A stretch of 64,000 nt of DNA from Eledone cirrhosa (Eukaryota), in contig OZ024740.1 of the NCBI GenBank assembly GCA_964016885.1, positions 3,100,001 through 3,164,000 on the forward strand. The letters run 5' to 3'. The notes under the pieces are model-generated. The model made no database searches and had not been told where the DNA came from. It saw only the letters and a program-made list of their open reading frames with translations. The first letter of the stretch is position 1, and every line of letters starts with the position of its first letter. The position numbers and the translations under genes are program-made. Below, piece by piece: positions 1 through 43,400 of the stretch.

Positions 1-8
1 GTGTTTCA

Positions 9-2135
9 ATGTCGAACCTAAACAGTTCGAATAACGGTGAAGTGGAGACTGGAATGTCATGTGACAGACTCTCACCCAGCAGGTGCTCCCTGGCTCAGCA
101 GCAGGGACCTGGCTGTCAACCAAATACTGCTGGTGTTGGAGGAAGAAGAAGGAAAGGGACCAGAACCAACTGGACGAAAGAATTGAATAGAACTGTTATG
201 CAATGTTACCTGAAGAGTAACCCCAAGGAAAATGGCTATAGGAAACGGATGCATAACATCTGGAACGAGATTGGACTATTTAAATTAGATGAACAAAAAT
301 CGGCTGGGCAGGCTCGGGTAATAAGAACTAATGGGTGGATAAGCGAGCTGGAAGTGGAGGAACTGAGCAGAGAGATTAGGTTGGAAATGGAGAGTGGAGT
401 ATGCCAGGCAAACGAGCCAGTGGGAAATAAAGGTGAAGAGGTTGAGAGAACGGAGGAACCATCCGAAGCAGACAATGATCTGAATGCTGAAATAAATAAT
501 ACCTGGAATAAAGATACGGCCATTGAGGAAATGAATGATTTACGGGCTAGGACAAGATTTGGTTGATATCCTAAACTTAGTGGTAGATGGAATGAACAAT
601 GATAGTGGGAAACTTATGAACCTAAGATTTGTAGACAGGAAAAAGTTAAAAGAAACAACAGCTAAGGTAAACAAAGTTATCTTGGATAACCAAAAGCCTA
701 GAGATCTTGAAGGTGGCAGATAACATCAGACAGTTGTTGGGTAAAAGTATGAAGTCCTGGAAAACAGAGTTAACATCAGCTGGAGAATCCTTGGGAGGCG
801 TGAAGATCAAGAGAGGTATCTTCCAGGGAGATAGTTTGTCCCATCTGTTGTTTGTCCTTGCCCTGATGCCCCTGACCATTATACTGCGAAAAGTGAGAGC
901 AGGATACAAGTTGGGAAAGGGAGGGCTTACCATCAATCGCCTCCTCTTCATGGACGATCTTAAACTCTTTGGGAAGAGTGAGAAGGAGTTGGATGTACTT
1001 GTTGACACTGTCCGTATTTTCAGCAATGATATATGTATGCAATTTGGTATTAGTAAGTGTGGAGTCCTTGTGATGAAGAGGGGTAAATTGAGCAGAAGCA
1101 ACGGAATCCAGGTACCAACAGGTGAGATGATAAAGGAAATTGACACTGAAGAAGGATACAAGAGGAGTGATGTCGATAGACTCTATTTAAGGAGATCTGA
1201 AGGTGGAAGAGGTCTTATCAGCATAGAGGACTGTGTTCAGATGGAGAAAAACAACCTACACAAATACATGACCGATAGTAAGGAGCCAATGCTCAGAATT
1301 GTACTGAAGGAGAGGACAATAGACCAGGGGATGTCCAAGGAGGAAATAACAACGAGGAGAAAGAGCAACCTTCATGAAAAATCCCTTCATAGTACCTTCT
1401 TTGAGAAAACGGAATTCAGAGATCCACAGACATGGAACTGGTTGAGAAGAGGAGACCTTAAAAAGGCTACAGAAGGAATGCTAATGGCTGCGCAAGAGCA
1501 GGCCCTCAAAATGAAGTGGCTGAAACACCATATTTACAAGGAGCAGGTTAGCCCACTGTGCAGGATCTGTGGAGAGAGAGAGGAGACTGTGGCTCACATT
1601 GTGTTGTCCGAGTGTAAACACCTAGCCCAAACTCACTATAAAGGCTGGAGACATGATGTGATGGGCAGAGTGATCCACTGGCACCTATGCAAAGTAAACA
1701 ATTTACCACATTCTGAGAAGTGGTATGAGCATAAGCCAGAGTCGGTGATAGAAAACGATCAGGTGAAGGTGCTATGGGATTTTAGGATACAGACGGACAA
1801 GAAACTGGAACACAGTAGACCTGACCTGGTGGTTTTGGACAAGGAAAAAAAGATTGTGCCTGATTGTGGATGTGACCTGCCCATTTGACACGAGAGTGCA
1901 AGAGAATGAGAGAGAGAAAATTAATCAATTCCAGGACTTAAAGTGGGAGGTAAAAAGGATTTGGAACTGCCATAAAGTCAAAGTGGTCCCGATTGTCATA
2001 GGCGCACTGGGGACTATCTCCAAAAGTTTCCAGGGATGGTTAAAGAAAATTGGCCCAGCCCCGCTTTTTGGAACACTTCAAAAGGCATGCTTGCTGGGAA
2101 CAGCAAGAACCCTCCGATACGTCCTGAATATCTGA
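9..2135 (+). pseudogene. Disrupted RT/RLE polyprotein of retrotransposon copy 1
   Basis: Split over four ORFs (9-566, 535-723, 707-1888, 1854-2135). Frameshifts near 540 and at the A-run near 1845-1852. Apparent deletions near 681 (N-terminus joins WITKSLEILKVADN, early RT motifs absent) and near 1162 (EGYK joined directly to RSDVDRLY, YLG motif absent). Confidence 0.85.
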
Positions 2136-2161
2136 GGCTGCAGGTAGTGGCTTGATATTCA
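2125..2161 (+). other. 3' stem-loop of retrotransposon copy 1
   Basis: TGAATATC-[TG bulge]-AGGCTGC-loop AGGTA-GTGGCTT-GATATTCA; paired by eye, including G-U pairs. Confidence 0.6.
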
Positions 2162-2212
2162 TTTCAACAAACTTTCCAGTTAACTAACATCAATGACTGA
2201 GACTCAAAGAAC

Positions 2213-2226
2213 AATAATAATAATAA
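2213..2226. repeat. (AAT)n microsatellite: tail of copy 1 and insertion site of copy 2
   Basis: aataataataataa between the two elements. Confidence 0.85.
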
Positions 2227-3134
2227 GCATCAAAAGATCATATACCATTACAAAAGATGCACAAAGATACAGTAATGGACTACAAATTTCAGAAGTTCCA
2301 TTTACTGCTGAAATGAAAAACACAGAAAAAGCAAAGCAGGTAAAAGTAACTGCAAAGAAAGAACTGCTACAGAAACTGGCTAAGAAATGGCAAGAAAAGC
2401 CTCTGTATGGAAAATACCAGAAAGATGTTGATGTTGACAAAACTTTAACCCATCAGTGGTTGGCATCCGCTGGACTGAAATCGGAGACTGAAGGACTGAT
2501 TATATCAGCACAAGATCAGTGTCTGCCAACAAAAAATTACCAAGCCAACATAATAAAAAATGGATGCAACCCATTATGCCGTGTATGTAAAAAACAACCA
2601 GAGACCATTGATCATATAATTTCAATGTGCAGTCCTATAGCTCCAACCGAATACCTAAAAAGGCATGACAGAGCTGCACAATACAAACATTGGATAATGT
2701 GTAAACATTTTGATCTTCCTCGTCAAAAGAATTGGTGGGAGCATCAACCACCTCCCATACTTGAAAAAGATCACATCTCAATCTTGTGGAACTTTAGCAT
2801 CCAAACAGACCGAAAAATAAATGCAAATAGATCTGATATAATACTGAAGGACTTAAAAAAGAGGGTATGCCTGCTAATTGATATGTCCGTTCCAATAGAC
2901 AAGAATGTATCTATAAAAACATTTGAAAAATTGAGCAAGTATAAGGACCTGGAAATAGAAATTGGAAAAATGTGGAAATTGAGAACTAAAACAATACCAG
3001 TGGTTGTAGGCGCTCTAGGAATGATACCTAAGGAGTCTAATGATTACTTATCCCAAATCCCAGGAAACCCACGTATAGGAAAAATACAAAATATGGGAAC
3101 TGCCCATATATTAAGGAAGATTCTGTCAATATAA
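2227..3134 (+). pseudogene. C-terminal zinc-knuckle/RLE fragment of copy 2
   Basis: The ORF track start (2193) lies in the 3' UTR/TAA tail of copy 1. There is no RT domain, the PD motif reads SD, and short deletions are likely. Confidence 0.8.
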
Positions 3135-36900: not shown

Positions 36901-39043
36901 ACAGAGACAAGTAGAAGCCATCATCACCCCCCACACAGAGATACAAGTACAGAGACAAGTAGAAGCTATCATCCCCCACACACAGAGATACAAGTACAGA
37001 GACAAGTAGAAGCCATCATCCCCCCCACACAGAGATACAAGTACAGAGACAAGTAGAAGATATCATCACCCTCCACACAAAGATGCAAGTACAGAGACGA
37101 GTAGAAGCCATCATCCCCCCCACACAGAGATACAAGTACAGAGACAAGCAGAAGATATCATCACCCCCCACACAGAGATACAAGTACAGAGACAAGTAGA
37201 AGCCATCATGACCCCCCACACAGAGATACAAGTACAGAGACAAGTAGAAGACATCATCACCCCCCACACAGAGATACAAGTACACAGACAAATAGAAGAC
37301 ATCGTCAACCCACACAGAGATACAAGTACAGAGACAAGTAAAAGACATCATCACCCCCCACACAGAGATGCAAGTAGAGAGACAAGTAGAAGACATCATC
37401 ACCCCCACACAGAGATACAAGTACAGAGACAAGTAGAAGACATCATCACCCCCCACACAGAGATACAAGTACAGAGACAAGTAGAAGACATCATCACCCC
37501 CACACAGAGATACAAGTACAGAGACAAGTAGAAGATATCATCACCCCCCCCACACAGAGATACACGTACAGAGACAAGTAGAAGCCATCATCACCCCCCA
37601 CACAGAGATACAAGTACAGAGACAAGTAGAAGCCATCATCACCCCCCACACAGAGATACACGTACAGAGACAAGTAGAAGCCATCATCACCCCCCACACA
37701 GAGATACAAGTAGAGAGACAAGTAGAAGAAATCATCACACCCCACACAGAGATACAAGTACAGAGACAAGTAGAAGCCATCATCACCCCCCACACAGAGA
37801 TACAAGTACAGAGACAAGTAGAAGATATCATCACCCCCCACACAGAGATACAAGTACAGAGACAAGTAGAAGCCATCATCACCCCCCACACAGAGATACA
37901 AGTACAGAGACAAGTAGAAGCCATCATCACCCCCCACACAGAGATACAAGTACAGAGACAAGTAGAAGCCATCACCCCCCCCCCACACACAGAGATGCAA
38001 GTAGAGAGACAAGTAGAAGACATCATCACCCCCACACAGAGATACAAGTACAGAGATAAGTAGAAGACATCATCACCCCCACACAGAGATACAAGTACAG
38101 AGACAAGTAGAAGATATCATCACCCCCCACACAGAGATACAAGTACAGAGACAAGTAGAAGATATCATCACCCCCACACAGAGATACAAGTACAGAGACA
38201 AGTAGAAGATATGATCACCCCCCACACAGAGATACAAGTACAGAGACAAGTAGAAGATATCATCACCCCCCACATAGAGATACAAGTACAGAGACAAGTA
38301 GAAGATATCATCACCCCCCCCACACAGAGATACACGTACAGAGACAAGTAGAAGCCATCATCACCCCCACACAGAGATACACGTACAGAGACAAGTAGAA
38401 GCCATCATCACCCCCCACACAGAGATACAAGTACAGAGACAAGTAGAAGATATCATCACACCCCACACAGAGATACACGTACAGAGACAAGTAGAAGCCA
38501 TCATCACCCCCCACACAGAGATACAAGTACAGAGACACGTAGAAGACATCATCACCCCCACACAGAGATACAAGTACACAGACAAGTAGAAGAAATCATC
38601 ACCCCCCACACAGAGATGCAAGTACAGAGACAAGTAGAAGATATCATCACCCCCCACACAGAGATACAAGTACAGAGACAAGTAGAAGATATCACCCTCC
38701 ACACAGAGATGCAAGTACAGAGACAAGTAGAAGCCATCGTCACCCCCCACACAGAGATACAAGTACAGAGACAAGTAGAAGATATCATCACCCCCCACAC
38801 AGAGATACAAGTACAGAGACAAGTAGAAGACATCATCACCCCTCACACAGAGATACAAGTACAGAGACAAGTAGAAGATATGATCACCCCCCACACAGAG
38901 ATGCAAGTACGAGACAAGTAGAAGATATCATCACCCCCCACACAGAGATACAAGTACAGAGACAAGTAGAAGCCATCATCACCCCCCACACAGAGATACA
39001 AGTACAGAGACAAGGAGAAGCCATCATCACCCCCCACACACAG
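3935..39043. repeat. 48-bp minisatellite/satellite array, about 35.1 kb, roughly 730-740 units
   Basis: Consensus CATCACCCCCCACACAGAGATACAAGTACAGAGACAAGTAGAAG(AC/AT/CC)AT, continuous head-to-tail. C-run length variants, 36-bp deletion units and nested kb-scale duplications are visible. Copy number estimated from length. Confidence 0.98.
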
Positions 39044-39073
39044 GTAAATATATTTGATATTAAAGCTGTTGAA

Positions 39074-39079
39074 TCTTAC
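39074..39079 (-). promoter_or_regulatory. 5' splice donor of the Epac exon
   Basis: AAG|GTAAGA, close to the U1 consensus. Confidence 0.85.
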
Positions 39080-39156
39080 CTTACCATATATGGAGACATT
39101 GACAGAACCTTTCAAAATAATGTACCACGATTTACCTTCATCACCTTGACGGAATA
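39080..39156 (-). CDS. RAPGEF4: Internal coding exon (77 bp, phase 1 to phase 0) of an Epac / Rap guanine nucleotide exchange factor (RAPGEF4-like), cyclic-nucleotide-binding domain
   Basis: Minus strand: tctctttctatatttcag | TA TTC CGT CAA GGT GAT GAA GGT AAA TCG TGG TAC ATT ATT TTG AAA GGT TCT GTC AAT GTC TCC ATA TAT GGT AAG | gtaaga, giving [26 protein letters not shown]. This matches the Epac2 CNB-B segment as I recall it ([26 protein letters not shown]). The 38843..39115 ORF in the track shows its tail ([11 protein letters not shown]). An invertebrate gene would be the single Epac co-ortholog of RAPGEF3/4. Confidence 0.9.
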
Positions 39157-39178
39157 CTGAAATATAGAAAGAGATATA
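39157..39178 (-). promoter_or_regulatory. 3' splice site (polypyrimidine tract + CAG) of the Epac exon
   Basis: Minus strand TATATCTCTTTCTATATTTCAG directly before the exon. Confidence 0.85.
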
Positions 39179-40260
39179 GTGGTGGTGGTGGTGGTGGAGG
39201 TGGTGGTGGCAGTGGTGGTGGAGGTTGTGATGGTGGTGGTGATGGTGGTGGTGGTGGTGGTGGTGGTGGTGGTGGTGTGGTGGTGGAGGTGGTGGTGGCA
39301 GTGGTGGTGGAGGTGGTGATGGTTGTGGTGATCGTGGTGGTGGTGGTGGTGGTGGTGGTGGTGGTGGTGGTGGTGGAGGTGGTGGTGGAGGTGGTGGTGG
39401 TGGTGGTGGTGGTGGTGGTGGTGGTGTGGTGGTGGAGGTGGTGGTGGCAGTGGTGGTGGAGGTGGTGATGGTTGTGGTGATCGTGGTGGTGGTGGTGGTG
39501 GTGGTGGTGGTGGTGGTGGTGGTGGGGGTGGTGGTGGCAGTGGTGGTGGAGGTGGTGATGGTGGTGGTGATGGTGGTGGAAGTGTTAGTGGTGGTGGTGG
39601 TGGTGGTGGTGTTGGTGGAGGTGGTGATGGTGGTGGTGATGGTGGTGGAAGTGTTAGTGGTGGTGGTGGTGGTGGTGGTGGTGGTGGTGGTGGAGGTGGT
39701 GATGGTGGTGGTAGTGGTGGTGGAAGTGTTAGTGGTGGTGGTGGTGGTGGAGGTGGTGGTGGTGGTGGTGGTGGTGGTGGCGATGTTAGTGGTGGTGGTG
39801 GTGGTGGGGGGGTAGTGGTGGTGGGGGTGATGGTGGGGTGGGTGGAGGTGGCAGTGGTGATGGTGATGGTGATGATGGTCATGGGAGGTGGTGGTGTTAG
39901 TGGTGGTGATGGTGATGATGGTGATGGGAGGTGGTGGTGTTAGTGGTGGTGATGGTGATGATGGTGATGGGAGGTGGTGGTGTTAGTGGTGGTGATGGTG
40001 ATGATGGTGATGGTAGTGGTAGTGGTAGTGGTGGTGGTGGTGGTGATGGTAGTGGTAGTGGTGGTGGTGGCAGTGGTGATGGTGATGATGGGTGGTGATG
40101 GTGGTGATGGTGATGGTAGTGGTAGTGGTAGTGGTGGTGGTGATGGTGATGGTAATGGTAGTGGTGTTGGTGGTGGTCATGGTGGTAGTGGTGGTAATGG
40201 CAGTGGTGGTGCTGGTGCTGGTAGTGGTGGTGGTGGTGGTTGTGGTGGTGGTGATAGTGG
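39179..40260. repeat. Imperfect (GGT)n microsatellite with GAT/GGA/AGT variants
   Basis: Direct reading. Includes a 149-bp internal duplication (about 39277/39426) and three 43-bp units at 39881, 39924 and 39967. Confidence 0.95.
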
Positions 40261-40423
40261 TTGATGTTGTGGTGGTTATTGTAGAGGTTGTAGTTGTTGT
40301 TGTAGTTGTTGTAGTTATTGTTGTTGTAGTTGTTGTTGTAGGGTTTGTAGTTGTTGATGTTGTAGTTGTTGTTGTAGTAGTAGTTGTAGTAGTGGTTGTA
40401 GTTGCTGTTGTAGTTGTTGTAGT
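40261..40423. repeat. Compound (GTT)n/(GTA)n microsatellite
   Basis: gttgtagttgttgttgtagtt... continuous with the GGT tract. Confidence 0.93.
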
Positions 40424-43400
40424 AAACCTCACTAATACCTCACTAGACCTCACTAGACCTCACTAGACCTCACTAGACCTCACAAGACCTCACTAATACC
40501 TCACTAGACCTCACTAGACCTCACTAGACCTCACTAGACCTCACTAGACCTCACAAGACCTCACTAATACCTCACTAGACCTCACTAATACCTCACTAGA
40601 CCTCACTAATACCTCACTAGACCTCACTAGACCTCACTAATACCTCACTAGACCTCACTAGACCTCACAAGACCTCACTAATAACTCAATAATAGCCCAC
40701 TAGACCTCACTAATACCTCACTAGACCTCACTAGATCTCACTAATACCTCACTAGACCTCACTAGACCTCACTAGACCTCACTAGACCTCACAAGACCTC
40801 ACTAATACCTCACTAGACCTCACTAATACCTCACTAATGCCTCACTAAAACCTCACTAATACCTCACTAGACCTCATTAGACCTCACTAATACATCATTA
40901 ATACCTCACTAGACCTCGCTAGACATCACTAATACCCCACTAATACCTCACTAGACCTTATTAATACCTCACTAGACCCCACTAAAACCTCACTAGACCT
41001 CACTAATACCTCACTAATACCTCACTAGACCTCACTAATACCTCACTAGATTTCACTAATACCTCACTAGGTTTCACTAATACCTCACAAGACCTCACTT
41101 ATGCCTCACTAATACCTCTCTAATACCTCACTAGACCTCACTAATTCCTCACTAACACCTCAATAATTTCTCATTAATACCTGACTAATACCTCACTAGC
41201 ATCACACTAGACCTCACTAAACCTCACTAATACATCACTAATACCTCACTAATACCTCACTAGACCTCACTAATACCTCACTAGACCTCACTAGACCTCA
41301 CAAATACCTAACTAATACCTCACTATACTTCACTAATACCTCACTAATACCTCATTAGACATCACTAATACCTCACTAATACCTCACTAGACCTAACTAA
41401 TACCTCACTATACTTCACTAATACCTCACTAATACCACACTAGACGTCACTAATAACTCACTAATACTTCACTAGACCTAACTAATACCTCACTAATATC
41501 TCACTAGACCTAACTAATACCTCACTAATACCTCACTAGAACTCACTAATACCTCACTAATAACTCAATAATACTCCACTAATACCTCACTAATACCTCA
41601 CTAGACATCATTAGACCTCACTAATACATCATTAATACCTCACTAGACCTCGCTAGACCTCATTAATACCCCACTAATACCTCACTAGACCTTACTAATA
41701 CCTCACTAGACCCCACTAAAACCTCACTAGACCTCACTAATACCTCACTAATACCTCACTAATACCTCACTAGACCTCACTAATACCTCACTAGGTTTCA
41801 CTAATACCTCAATAGACCTCACTTATAACTCAATAATAGCTCACTAGACGTCACTAGACGTCACTAATACCTCACTAGACCTCACTAATAACTCAATAAT
41901 AGCCCACTAGACCTCACTAATACCTCACTAGACCTCAATAATATCTAGCTAGACCTCACTAGACCTCACTAATATCCTCACTAATACCTCACTAGACCTC
42001 ACTTATAACAAACTAATAGCTCACTAGATCCCACTAATACCTCACTAATACCTCACTAGAGCACACTAATACCCAGCTAGACCTCACTAGACTTCACTAA
42101 TACCTCACGAGACCTCACTAATACCTCACTAGACCTCACTAATACCTCACTAATACCTCACTAGAGCTCACTAATACCTCACTAGATCTCACTAGACCTC
42201 ACTAATACCTCACTAATAGCTCACAAACCTCACTAATACCTCACGAGACCTCACTAATACCTCACTATTACCTCACTAATACCTTACTAGACCTCACTAG
42301 ACGTCACTAAAGCTCACTAATACCTCACTAATACCTCACTAGACCTAGTGAGGTATTAACCTCACTAGACCCCACTAGACCTCGCTAATACCTAACTAAC
42401 ACATTACTAATACCTCACTAGACCTCACTAATACCTATCTAGACCTGACTAATACCTGACTAATACCTCACTAATACTTGACTAATACCTTACTAATACC
42501 TCACTAGATCTCACTAATACCTCACTAGACGTCACTAGACCTTACTAATACCTTGCTAATACCTCACTAATACCTCACTAAGACCACACTAGACCACTCT
42601 AATACCTCACTAATAGCTCACTAGAGACTATTAGTACCTTACTAGATCTCACTAATACCTCACTAGACCTCACTACACCTCACTAGACCTCACTAATACC
42701 TCACTAATACCTCACTAGACATCACTAATACCTCACGAATACCTCATTAATACCTCACTAATACCTCACTAGACCTCACTAGACCTCGCTAATACCTCAC
42801 TAATACGTCACTAATACCTCACTAGACCTCACTAATACCTCACTAGACCTCACTAATACCTCACTAATACCTCACTAATACCTCGCTAGACCTAACTAAT
42901 AACTCACTAGACCTCACTAATACCTCACTAATACCTTCACTAGACCTCACTAATACCTCACTAGACCTCAGTAGACCTCACTAATACCTCACTAGACCGC
43001 ACTAGACCTCACTAATACCTCACTAATGCCTCACTAATACCTCACTAGATCTCACTAATACCTCACTAATACCTCACTAGACCTCAGTAATAACTCACTA
43101 ATACCTCACTAGACCTCACTAATACCTCACTAGACCTGACTAATAGCTCACTAATACCTCACTAGACATCACTAATACCTCACGAATACCTCATTAATAC
43201 CTCACTAATACCTCACTAGACCTCACTAGACCTCGCTAATACCTCACTAATACGTCACTAATACCTCACTGGACCTCACTAATACCTCACTAGACCTCAC
43301 TAATACCTCACTAATACATCACTAATACCTCACTAGACCTCACTAATACCTCAATAATACCTCACTAGACCTCAGTAATACCTCACTAATACCTCACTAG

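Follow-up and report, generated by a model that had tools for sequence, protein, structure and literature searches.

The window, a stretch of 64,000 nucleotides of the Eledone cirrhosa genome (C1:3,100,001-3,164,000), lies near one end of C1, a 443-Mb chromosome, and contains one coding exon between long tandem repeats (Table 1). The exon is bordered by the acceptor ...tctatatttcag and the donor gtaaga, and its translation of 25 residues has as its top PDB match residues 373-397 of Epac2 (E 5e-14). Epac CNB-B fits better than other families, as PKA and PKG were matched at E 6e-5 or weaker and RAPGEF6 at E 0.24. The initial annotation had described a lone 77-bp Epac/RAPGEF4 exon with its acceptor and donor, which was confirmed by the Epac2 match and by a spliced contig (below); a second Epac exon was looked for within the 64-kb window and none was found, so that its claim of no further Epac exon here also holds. 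Analysis with TRF revealed that the unique island of 138 bp (39041-39178) is the sole non-repeat DNA separating the 48-bp array from the GTG/GTT run and the 11-bp satellite, and the island has a copy number of one in the 3.0-Gb genome. An island of about 135 bp with flanks of about 22 and about 36 nt had been proposed; the acceptor flank is indeed 22 nt, whereas the donor flank is 39 nt. Repeats adjoin the exon on both sides as described, but the acceptor side borders on 1.25 kb of trinucleotide microsatellite and not on the 11-bp satellite.

Table 1 Features of the window, in window coordinates, with strand where assigned.
Feature	Position	Strand	Remarks
Decayed non-LTR retrotransposon pieces in the 53.4-kb downstream intron	3-3131	plus	Antisense to Epac
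48-bp minisatellite array	3935-39040		TRF: 35.1 kb, 739 copies, 90% matches; private to the downstream intron
Unique 5' end of the downstream intron (53,378 nt)	39041-39079	minus	Donor GTAAGA at 39079-39074
Epac/RAPGEF4 coding exon	39156-39080	minus	77 nt; exon 9 of the 27 located; codes for a part of cyclic-nucleotide-binding domain B (CNB-B)
Unique 3' end of the upstream intron (88,834 nt)	39157-39178	minus	Pyrimidine tract and CAG acceptor
GTG/GTT microsatellite (sense strand CCA/CAA)	39179-40425		TRF 39179-40424; 1.25 kb
11-bp satellite (ACCTCACTAAT/ACCTCACTAG)	40426-64000		TRF 40426-63994; extends to C1:3,222,518, 82.1 kb in total

Mapping of cephalopod and bivalve Epac proteins placed 27 exons in collinear order on the minus strand, from C1:4,913,598 to a stop codon at 2,834,345, a span of 2,079,254 bp. 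The frame is open over 1,067 codons with no internal stop and encodes, in order, CNB-A, DEP, CNB-B, REM and RasGEF. Alignment with O. sinensis RAPGEF4 (XP_036358094.1) gave 983 identical residues out of 1,002 (98%), and the RasGEF exon 170 kb downstream of the window exon is 100% identical to Octopus bimaculoides RAPGEF4, which marks the host as an octopod. The collinear Epac exons expected on this scaffold are thus present in correct order and strand, including the two predicted neighbours on the minus strand in compatible phase: the next exon (GTVCQLQEGDDFG) at C1:3,085,701, 14.3 kb left of the window, and the previous one ending at C1:3,227,991, 64 kb to its right. The flanking introns, put initially at no less than 24.8 kb and 39 kb, measure 88.8 kb upstream and 53.4 kb downstream, respectively. 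Exon 1 (the first ~55 codons) was searched for and not located, and 2.08 Mb is therefore a minimum span. Eleven of the 26 introns exceed 40 kb and six are of 179-600 kb, the largest being 599,690 nt; the median is 13.6 kb and the smallest 133 nt. Coding DNA makes up 0.15% of the span (the gene is >99% intron), and the gene takes up ~2,075 bp per codon.

The domain order is that of Epac2/RAPGEF4 (PDB 1O7F, 2BYV; XP_036358094.1), and the protein offers no novelty except a possible 65-residue glycine-rich insertion in exon 7 (C1:3,471,056-3,471,434), where a GGT/GGC expansion would make the protein 65 residues longer than that of O. sinensis, most of them glycine; the expansion may be either coding or spliced out. 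Intron 14 (C1:3,019,742-3,013,545) is a 6.2-kb AT-AC intron, ~90% of it a 53-bp array, with the donor ATATCCTT and the branch TCCTTAAC, which we take to be of the minor-spliceosome type. Using this intron in the Epac model restored the frame and the 98% identity. A second copy of the penultimate exon, together with the adjacent 65-bp satellite, was observed at C1:30.53 Mb; it is 93% identical to the in-gene copy and is an old duplication that carried exon and array jointly.

Splicing across the repeats was evidenced by a 436-nt contig from one public run, which matches 39079-39156 at 78 of 78 letters and has loose ends at both splice sites. These loose ends are the neighbouring exons, with 30/30 matches to the 3' end of the upstream exon and 25/25 to the downstream exon. 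The junctions at 39156 and 39080 are hence both used in this single contig (n=1), which has a depth of 4.2; the type of its run is not recorded, and the run may come from the study behind the assembly. The contig proves that a spliced product exists and says nothing of its level or tissue, being compatible with splicing in cis and in trans alike. The joined exon sequence is also present in related cephalopod proteins. A processed pseudogene as source of the contig was rejected, as genome searches (one of them stricter at first pass) gave no intronless Epac copy.

The arrays themselves are mostly local. All 512 exact genome matches of a 22-mer of the 48-bp unit fall inside the window, and a search for both window satellites in the other sampled loci found none outside its own array. 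Among 626 units of the 48-bp array there are 192 distinct variants, and the array contains kb-scale higher-order duplications, most commonly at offsets of 3791, 1678 and 1420 bp. Such duplications and variants are the pattern expected of repeated unequal exchange. A stretch of 464 kb, read continuously and containing no N, is 83% tandem repeat with a new unit in nearly every large intron (11, 19, 28, 35, 42, 45, 48, 53 and 65 bp) and arrays of up to 82 and 93 kb. Sampling of the larger upstream Epac introns added units of 14-68 bp, and units in the gene as a whole range over 9-68 bp; introns >170 kb were read in part, and most samples there were array-rich. The tandem-repeat fraction of four successive introns is 0.97, 0.68, 0.93 and 0.84, and in the two that flank the window exon it is 97% and 68%, which supports the initial annotation in so far as these giant introns are mostly tandem repeat. 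Altogether, 74 array records fall into 61 families. Few units recur: a 42-bp unit is found on C1 and C2, and a 45-bp unit occurs twice in Epac and, by eye, in a myosin gene of C6, where a related unit fills an intron near the chromosome end (C6:99.99 Mb).

Several minor features of the repeats were recorded. The 45-bp unit at C1:3,023,959-3,085,497 contains TTAGGG and the 19-bp unit at 2,969,862-2,977,957 contains AACCCTA, both telomere-like words. A 68-79 bp unit recurs, by eye, at C1:3.59 Mb, C1:6.42 Mb and C2:408 Mb, and was possibly seeded by a dispersed element, by analogy with the SINE-derived minisatellites of frogs. Arrays in the 250- and 600-kb introns (C1:3.52-4.21 Mb) are mostly G+T-rich on the plus strand, opposite to most arrays farther downstream. 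Two open frames in the retrotransposon pieces gave RVT_1 (671-1885, E 2e-6) and zf-RVT (2184-3131, E 7e-4) matches, both below the cut-off, which is a curated one for RVT_1.

We then asked how closely the arrays approach the exons. The non-array flank exceeds 100 bp on both sides in 14 of the 18 Epac exons measured (exons 13-15 with provisional boundaries), and only the window exon, with the narrowest pair, has <50 nt on both sides; three more have so short a flank on one side. A general minimal-flank rule was rejected because it fits 1/18 exons. Likewise rejected was the idea that cryptic splice motifs are purged from the sense strand, since the 39 arrays in Epac and myosin IX introns are undepleted: AG is lower on the sense strand in 18 arrays and on the antisense strand in 20, with corresponding counts of 11 and 14 for GTRAG and again 11 and 14 for acceptor-like motifs, and the sense strand of the 82-kb array upstream of the window exon carries GTRAG 72 times per kb. 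That only minimal exon-definition signals had been preserved, as first proposed, is therefore true of the window exon alone. Around this exon, AG is nearly absent from the Epac sense strand of the 48-bp array (2 per kb), and the CCA run leaves ~1,055 nt free of AG ahead of the acceptor. Both may aid the definition of this exon, with no general rule implied.

Inflation of this type is not confined to Epac. Myosin IX (C3:0.88-1.20 Mb; 200 of its 325 kb searched locally) has its exons in collinear order, and in two places successive matches are separated by 145 kb and ~67 kb; its arrays have units of 40, 29, 41 and 44 bp, and 20 samples from it average 58% long array. Its span per profile position is 763 bp, compared to a median of 57 bp for 18 other myosins. 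Two kinesin exons at C1:5.89 and 6.42 Mb lie 535 kb apart; all four samples between them are 100% array, of four different units, and the pair may belong to one gene, probably a kinesin inflated like Epac. Similar inflation was seen on C1, C3 and C6. For a gene-level control, myosin and kinesin motor exons were mapped, and the 27 multi-exon loci on contigs of known length were counted, the rest being omitted. The eight motor genes <8 Mb from a chromosome end, a cut-off set post hoc, take up 400 bp per profile position in the median, versus 41 bp for the other 19 (p 1e-4), and over all 27 genes there is a weak correlation between end distance and span (rho -0.37, p 0.055). Long arrays are lacking in three stretched kinesins, at the end of C12, at the start of C15 and in the interior of C4 (0 of 12 samples reach 25%), and one interior kinesin spans 100 kb. 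As further genes towards the ends of the largest chromosomes are filled alike, a repeat expansion of chromosome ends, not special to Epac, is likely; the specificity to a cAMP-signalling gene that the initial annotation implied gives way to a regional pattern including myosin IX and probably a kinesin.

The position of long arrays (unit >=9 bp, >=1 kb) was surveyed in 10-kb samples, which were called array-rich at >=25% coverage, a cut-off chosen after C1 had been seen. With this definition, array-rich samples number 24 of 33 in the outer ~23 Mb of C1-C3, the three largest chromosomes, versus 2 of 21 in the interior (Fisher p 5e-6), a comparison that leaves out samples chosen inside genes, those at 4.92-5.2 Mb (0, 0, 0 and 0.26) and 14 from smaller chromosomes. 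C2 and C3 alone gave 7/12 array-rich distal samples. On C5, C8, C12, C15 and C20, 4/14 samples are array-rich, of which two (C5:60 Mb and C8:40 Mb) are not close to an end; the terminal pattern is weak and not evident on the smaller chromosomes. Immediately beyond the located Epac exons, five of five samples (1.0, 1.8, 4.92, 4.96 and 5.05 Mb) are free of long arrays, so that the fill may follow genes and not position alone. Repeat-masked GC is 0.399 in distal and 0.373 in interior samples (18 and 20 samples, p 0.004), a slight excess of the kind expected from biased gene conversion. In the interior, C1:280.0 Mb holds tandem copies of a 1,723-bp unit (96% identity), unlike the distal minisatellites.

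Direct observation covers the exon, the collinear open gene, both junctions, the private 48-bp array, the duplications within it, the terminal enrichment and the inflated myosin IX. Combined with these observations, we consider it reasonably probable that an intact 2.08-Mb Epac gene acquired mostly local arrays which grew by unequal exchange in a terminal zone and were tolerated, not selected. The repeat-rich terminal zone, ~20-35 Mb on the largest chromosomes, would be one of high recombination, in which a short intronic seed repeat could amplify through unequal crossing-over or gene conversion. Arrays would extend until an exon or splice site would suffer, the exons would then be recognised via exon definition, and splicing across 50-600 kb would proceed co-transcriptionally. 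The window exon may be the extreme case, in which two arrays happen to close in from either side.

The likely closest counterpart is the minisatellite expansion of extended subtelomeres in frogs, here with larger arrays that would be tolerated in introns. In frogs, tandem arrays are described as abundant in the terminal 20-30 Mb of large chromosomes, where GC is slightly raised and where genes and exons lie among repeats and had been missed by earlier assemblies; unequal crossing-over was proposed as the cause (Bredeson et al. 2024, PMC10794172). Terminal arrays at both ends of C1-C3, raised GC and repeat-embedded exons are alike here. Unlike in frogs, where recombination was measured and correlates with satellites (r 0.68; PMC10794172), raised recombination is here a proposal; the main text of the frog paper does not contain the word 'intron', whereas the present case involves single arrays of 35-93 kb, one gene of >2 Mb and an invertebrate host. 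A likeness at smaller scale is given by human PTPRN2 and DLGAP2, reported as long subtelomeric genes with many VNTRs of units >15 bp (Linthorst 2020, PMC7608644); the human zone is 5 Mb with GC-rich VNTRs, compared to arrays of ~40-46% GC that fill 83% of 464 kb here. Against a reading based on terminal recombination we count the mouse PAR and zebra finch dot chromosomes, for which minisatellite-occupied introns and high recombination are reported (10.1101/2022.03.26.485930; 10.1101/2025.10.14.682431). High recombination is there combined with short introns and GC-rich exons, whereas the introns here are giant and Epac GC3 is 0.375, as computed on a model predating the correction of exons 13-15.

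A bolder proposal, which we regard as doubtful, is that many ordinary, conserved genes in the terminal zones of giant octopod chromosomes form a class of their own, inflated to hundreds of kilobases or megabases by intron-private satellites born in transcribed DNA, an autosomal and somatic version of the Y-loop architecture. If true, Epac, myosin IX, a kinesin and probably many more genes would have day-long transcription times and their own long-range splicing machinery.

An alternative in which the gene and not the zone is the unit, with arrays arising or persisting preferentially in transcribed introns of distal genes through transcription-associated breaks or R-loops, appears unlikely. All three inflated loci are indeed array-rich between exons, and the five samples just outside the Epac exons are without a long array; zebra finch dot chromosomes are also described as having minisatellite-linked motifs enriched in euchromatic introns. 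However, the full-array samples at 7-20 Mb may be genic or intergenic, and some of the 'outside' samples may be intronic because the first exon of Epac was not found. Nor do the arrays follow the direction of transcription: of the 39 in Epac and myosin IX introns, 22 are G+T-rich on the sense strand, which is not significant.

We judge it very unlikely that the introns are kept for a function, as a timer or RNP scaffold in need of dedicated RNA-binding proteins. At a transcription rate of 1-4 kb/min, a 2-Mb transcript would take roughly 9-35 hours, a point in favour of this reading. The Drosophila Y-loop genes kl-3 and kl-5, with which the initial annotation drew a parallel, carry Y-linked simple satellites, are spermatocyte-specific and need Blanks and Heph (Fingerhut 2019, PMC6508621; 2024, PMC11207136). 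Like these genes and the autosomal giants Pzl, Myo81F and Mitf, which are described as megabase-sized, >99% intron and satellite-filled with small exons spliced across arrays, Epac has the architecture (PMC6508621; PMC11207136). The parallel fails for the repeats: in place of a few simple shared satellites, this conserved signalling gene on an ordinary chromosome arm has minisatellites with units of 9-68 bp, nearly one per intron. As dozens of unrelated units change from one intron to the next, no common RNA motif is left; unrelated genes nearby are inflated as well, and half of the Epac introns are small. The similar inflation on C1, C3 and C6 would also speak against confinement to a small special gene set on a non-recombining sex chromosome.

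An assembly artefact, with the island mis-joined or array lengths inflated, is highly improbable. Two further runs gave no genomic contig for the island, a result without weight as evidence, and near-identical kb-scale blocks within arrays could be over-expanded, but all 27 exons are in correct order and strand, the 464 kb contain no N, and the 48-bp array has 192 distinct variants among its 626 units; as each array is locus-specific, little room is left for a mis-join. Least credible is a genome-wide bloat of octopus introns with the window as the tail of the distribution. In its favour, O. minor has enlarged introns (mean 5.4 kb) and 14.7% simple repeats according to PMC6279123, and one interior kinesin reaches 100 kb; against it, long arrays occurred in 2/21 interior samples and the median of 57 bp per position in 18 other myosins stands against 763 for myosin IX and ~2,075 bp per codon for Epac.

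Growth of private arrays in a terminal zone, the reading we prefer, points to frog-like extended subtelomeres in a cephalopod, a description that we did not find in the literature. No report of intronic or subtelomeric satellites in cephalopods was found in the literature covered, which excludes supplements and subscription papers, and the word 'satellite' has no match in the main texts of PMC9068888, PMC13218726 and PMC13652810. The structure is well supported, and its notable features are the size of the arrays, the use of nearly one unit per intron and the host group. It means that a conserved signalling gene is spliced across introns of 50-600 kb with largely locus-private arrays outside the Drosophila germline, and that as little as 22 + 39 unique bases can surround a spliced exon. 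RNA aligners set to a small maximum intron would miss such genes. Since the arrays are private, they provide intron-specific probes for nascent-RNA FISH, making the timing and order of giant-intron splicing directly testable.

RAPGEF4 is annotated in two pieces in both O. bimaculoides (656 + 213 aa) and O. vulgaris (810 + 85 aa), and giant introns may explain these split models of other octopuses. In each case the 5' piece stops at the counterpart of the exon just upstream of the 600-kb intron described above, a hint that the two other species, too, have a very long intron at this place.
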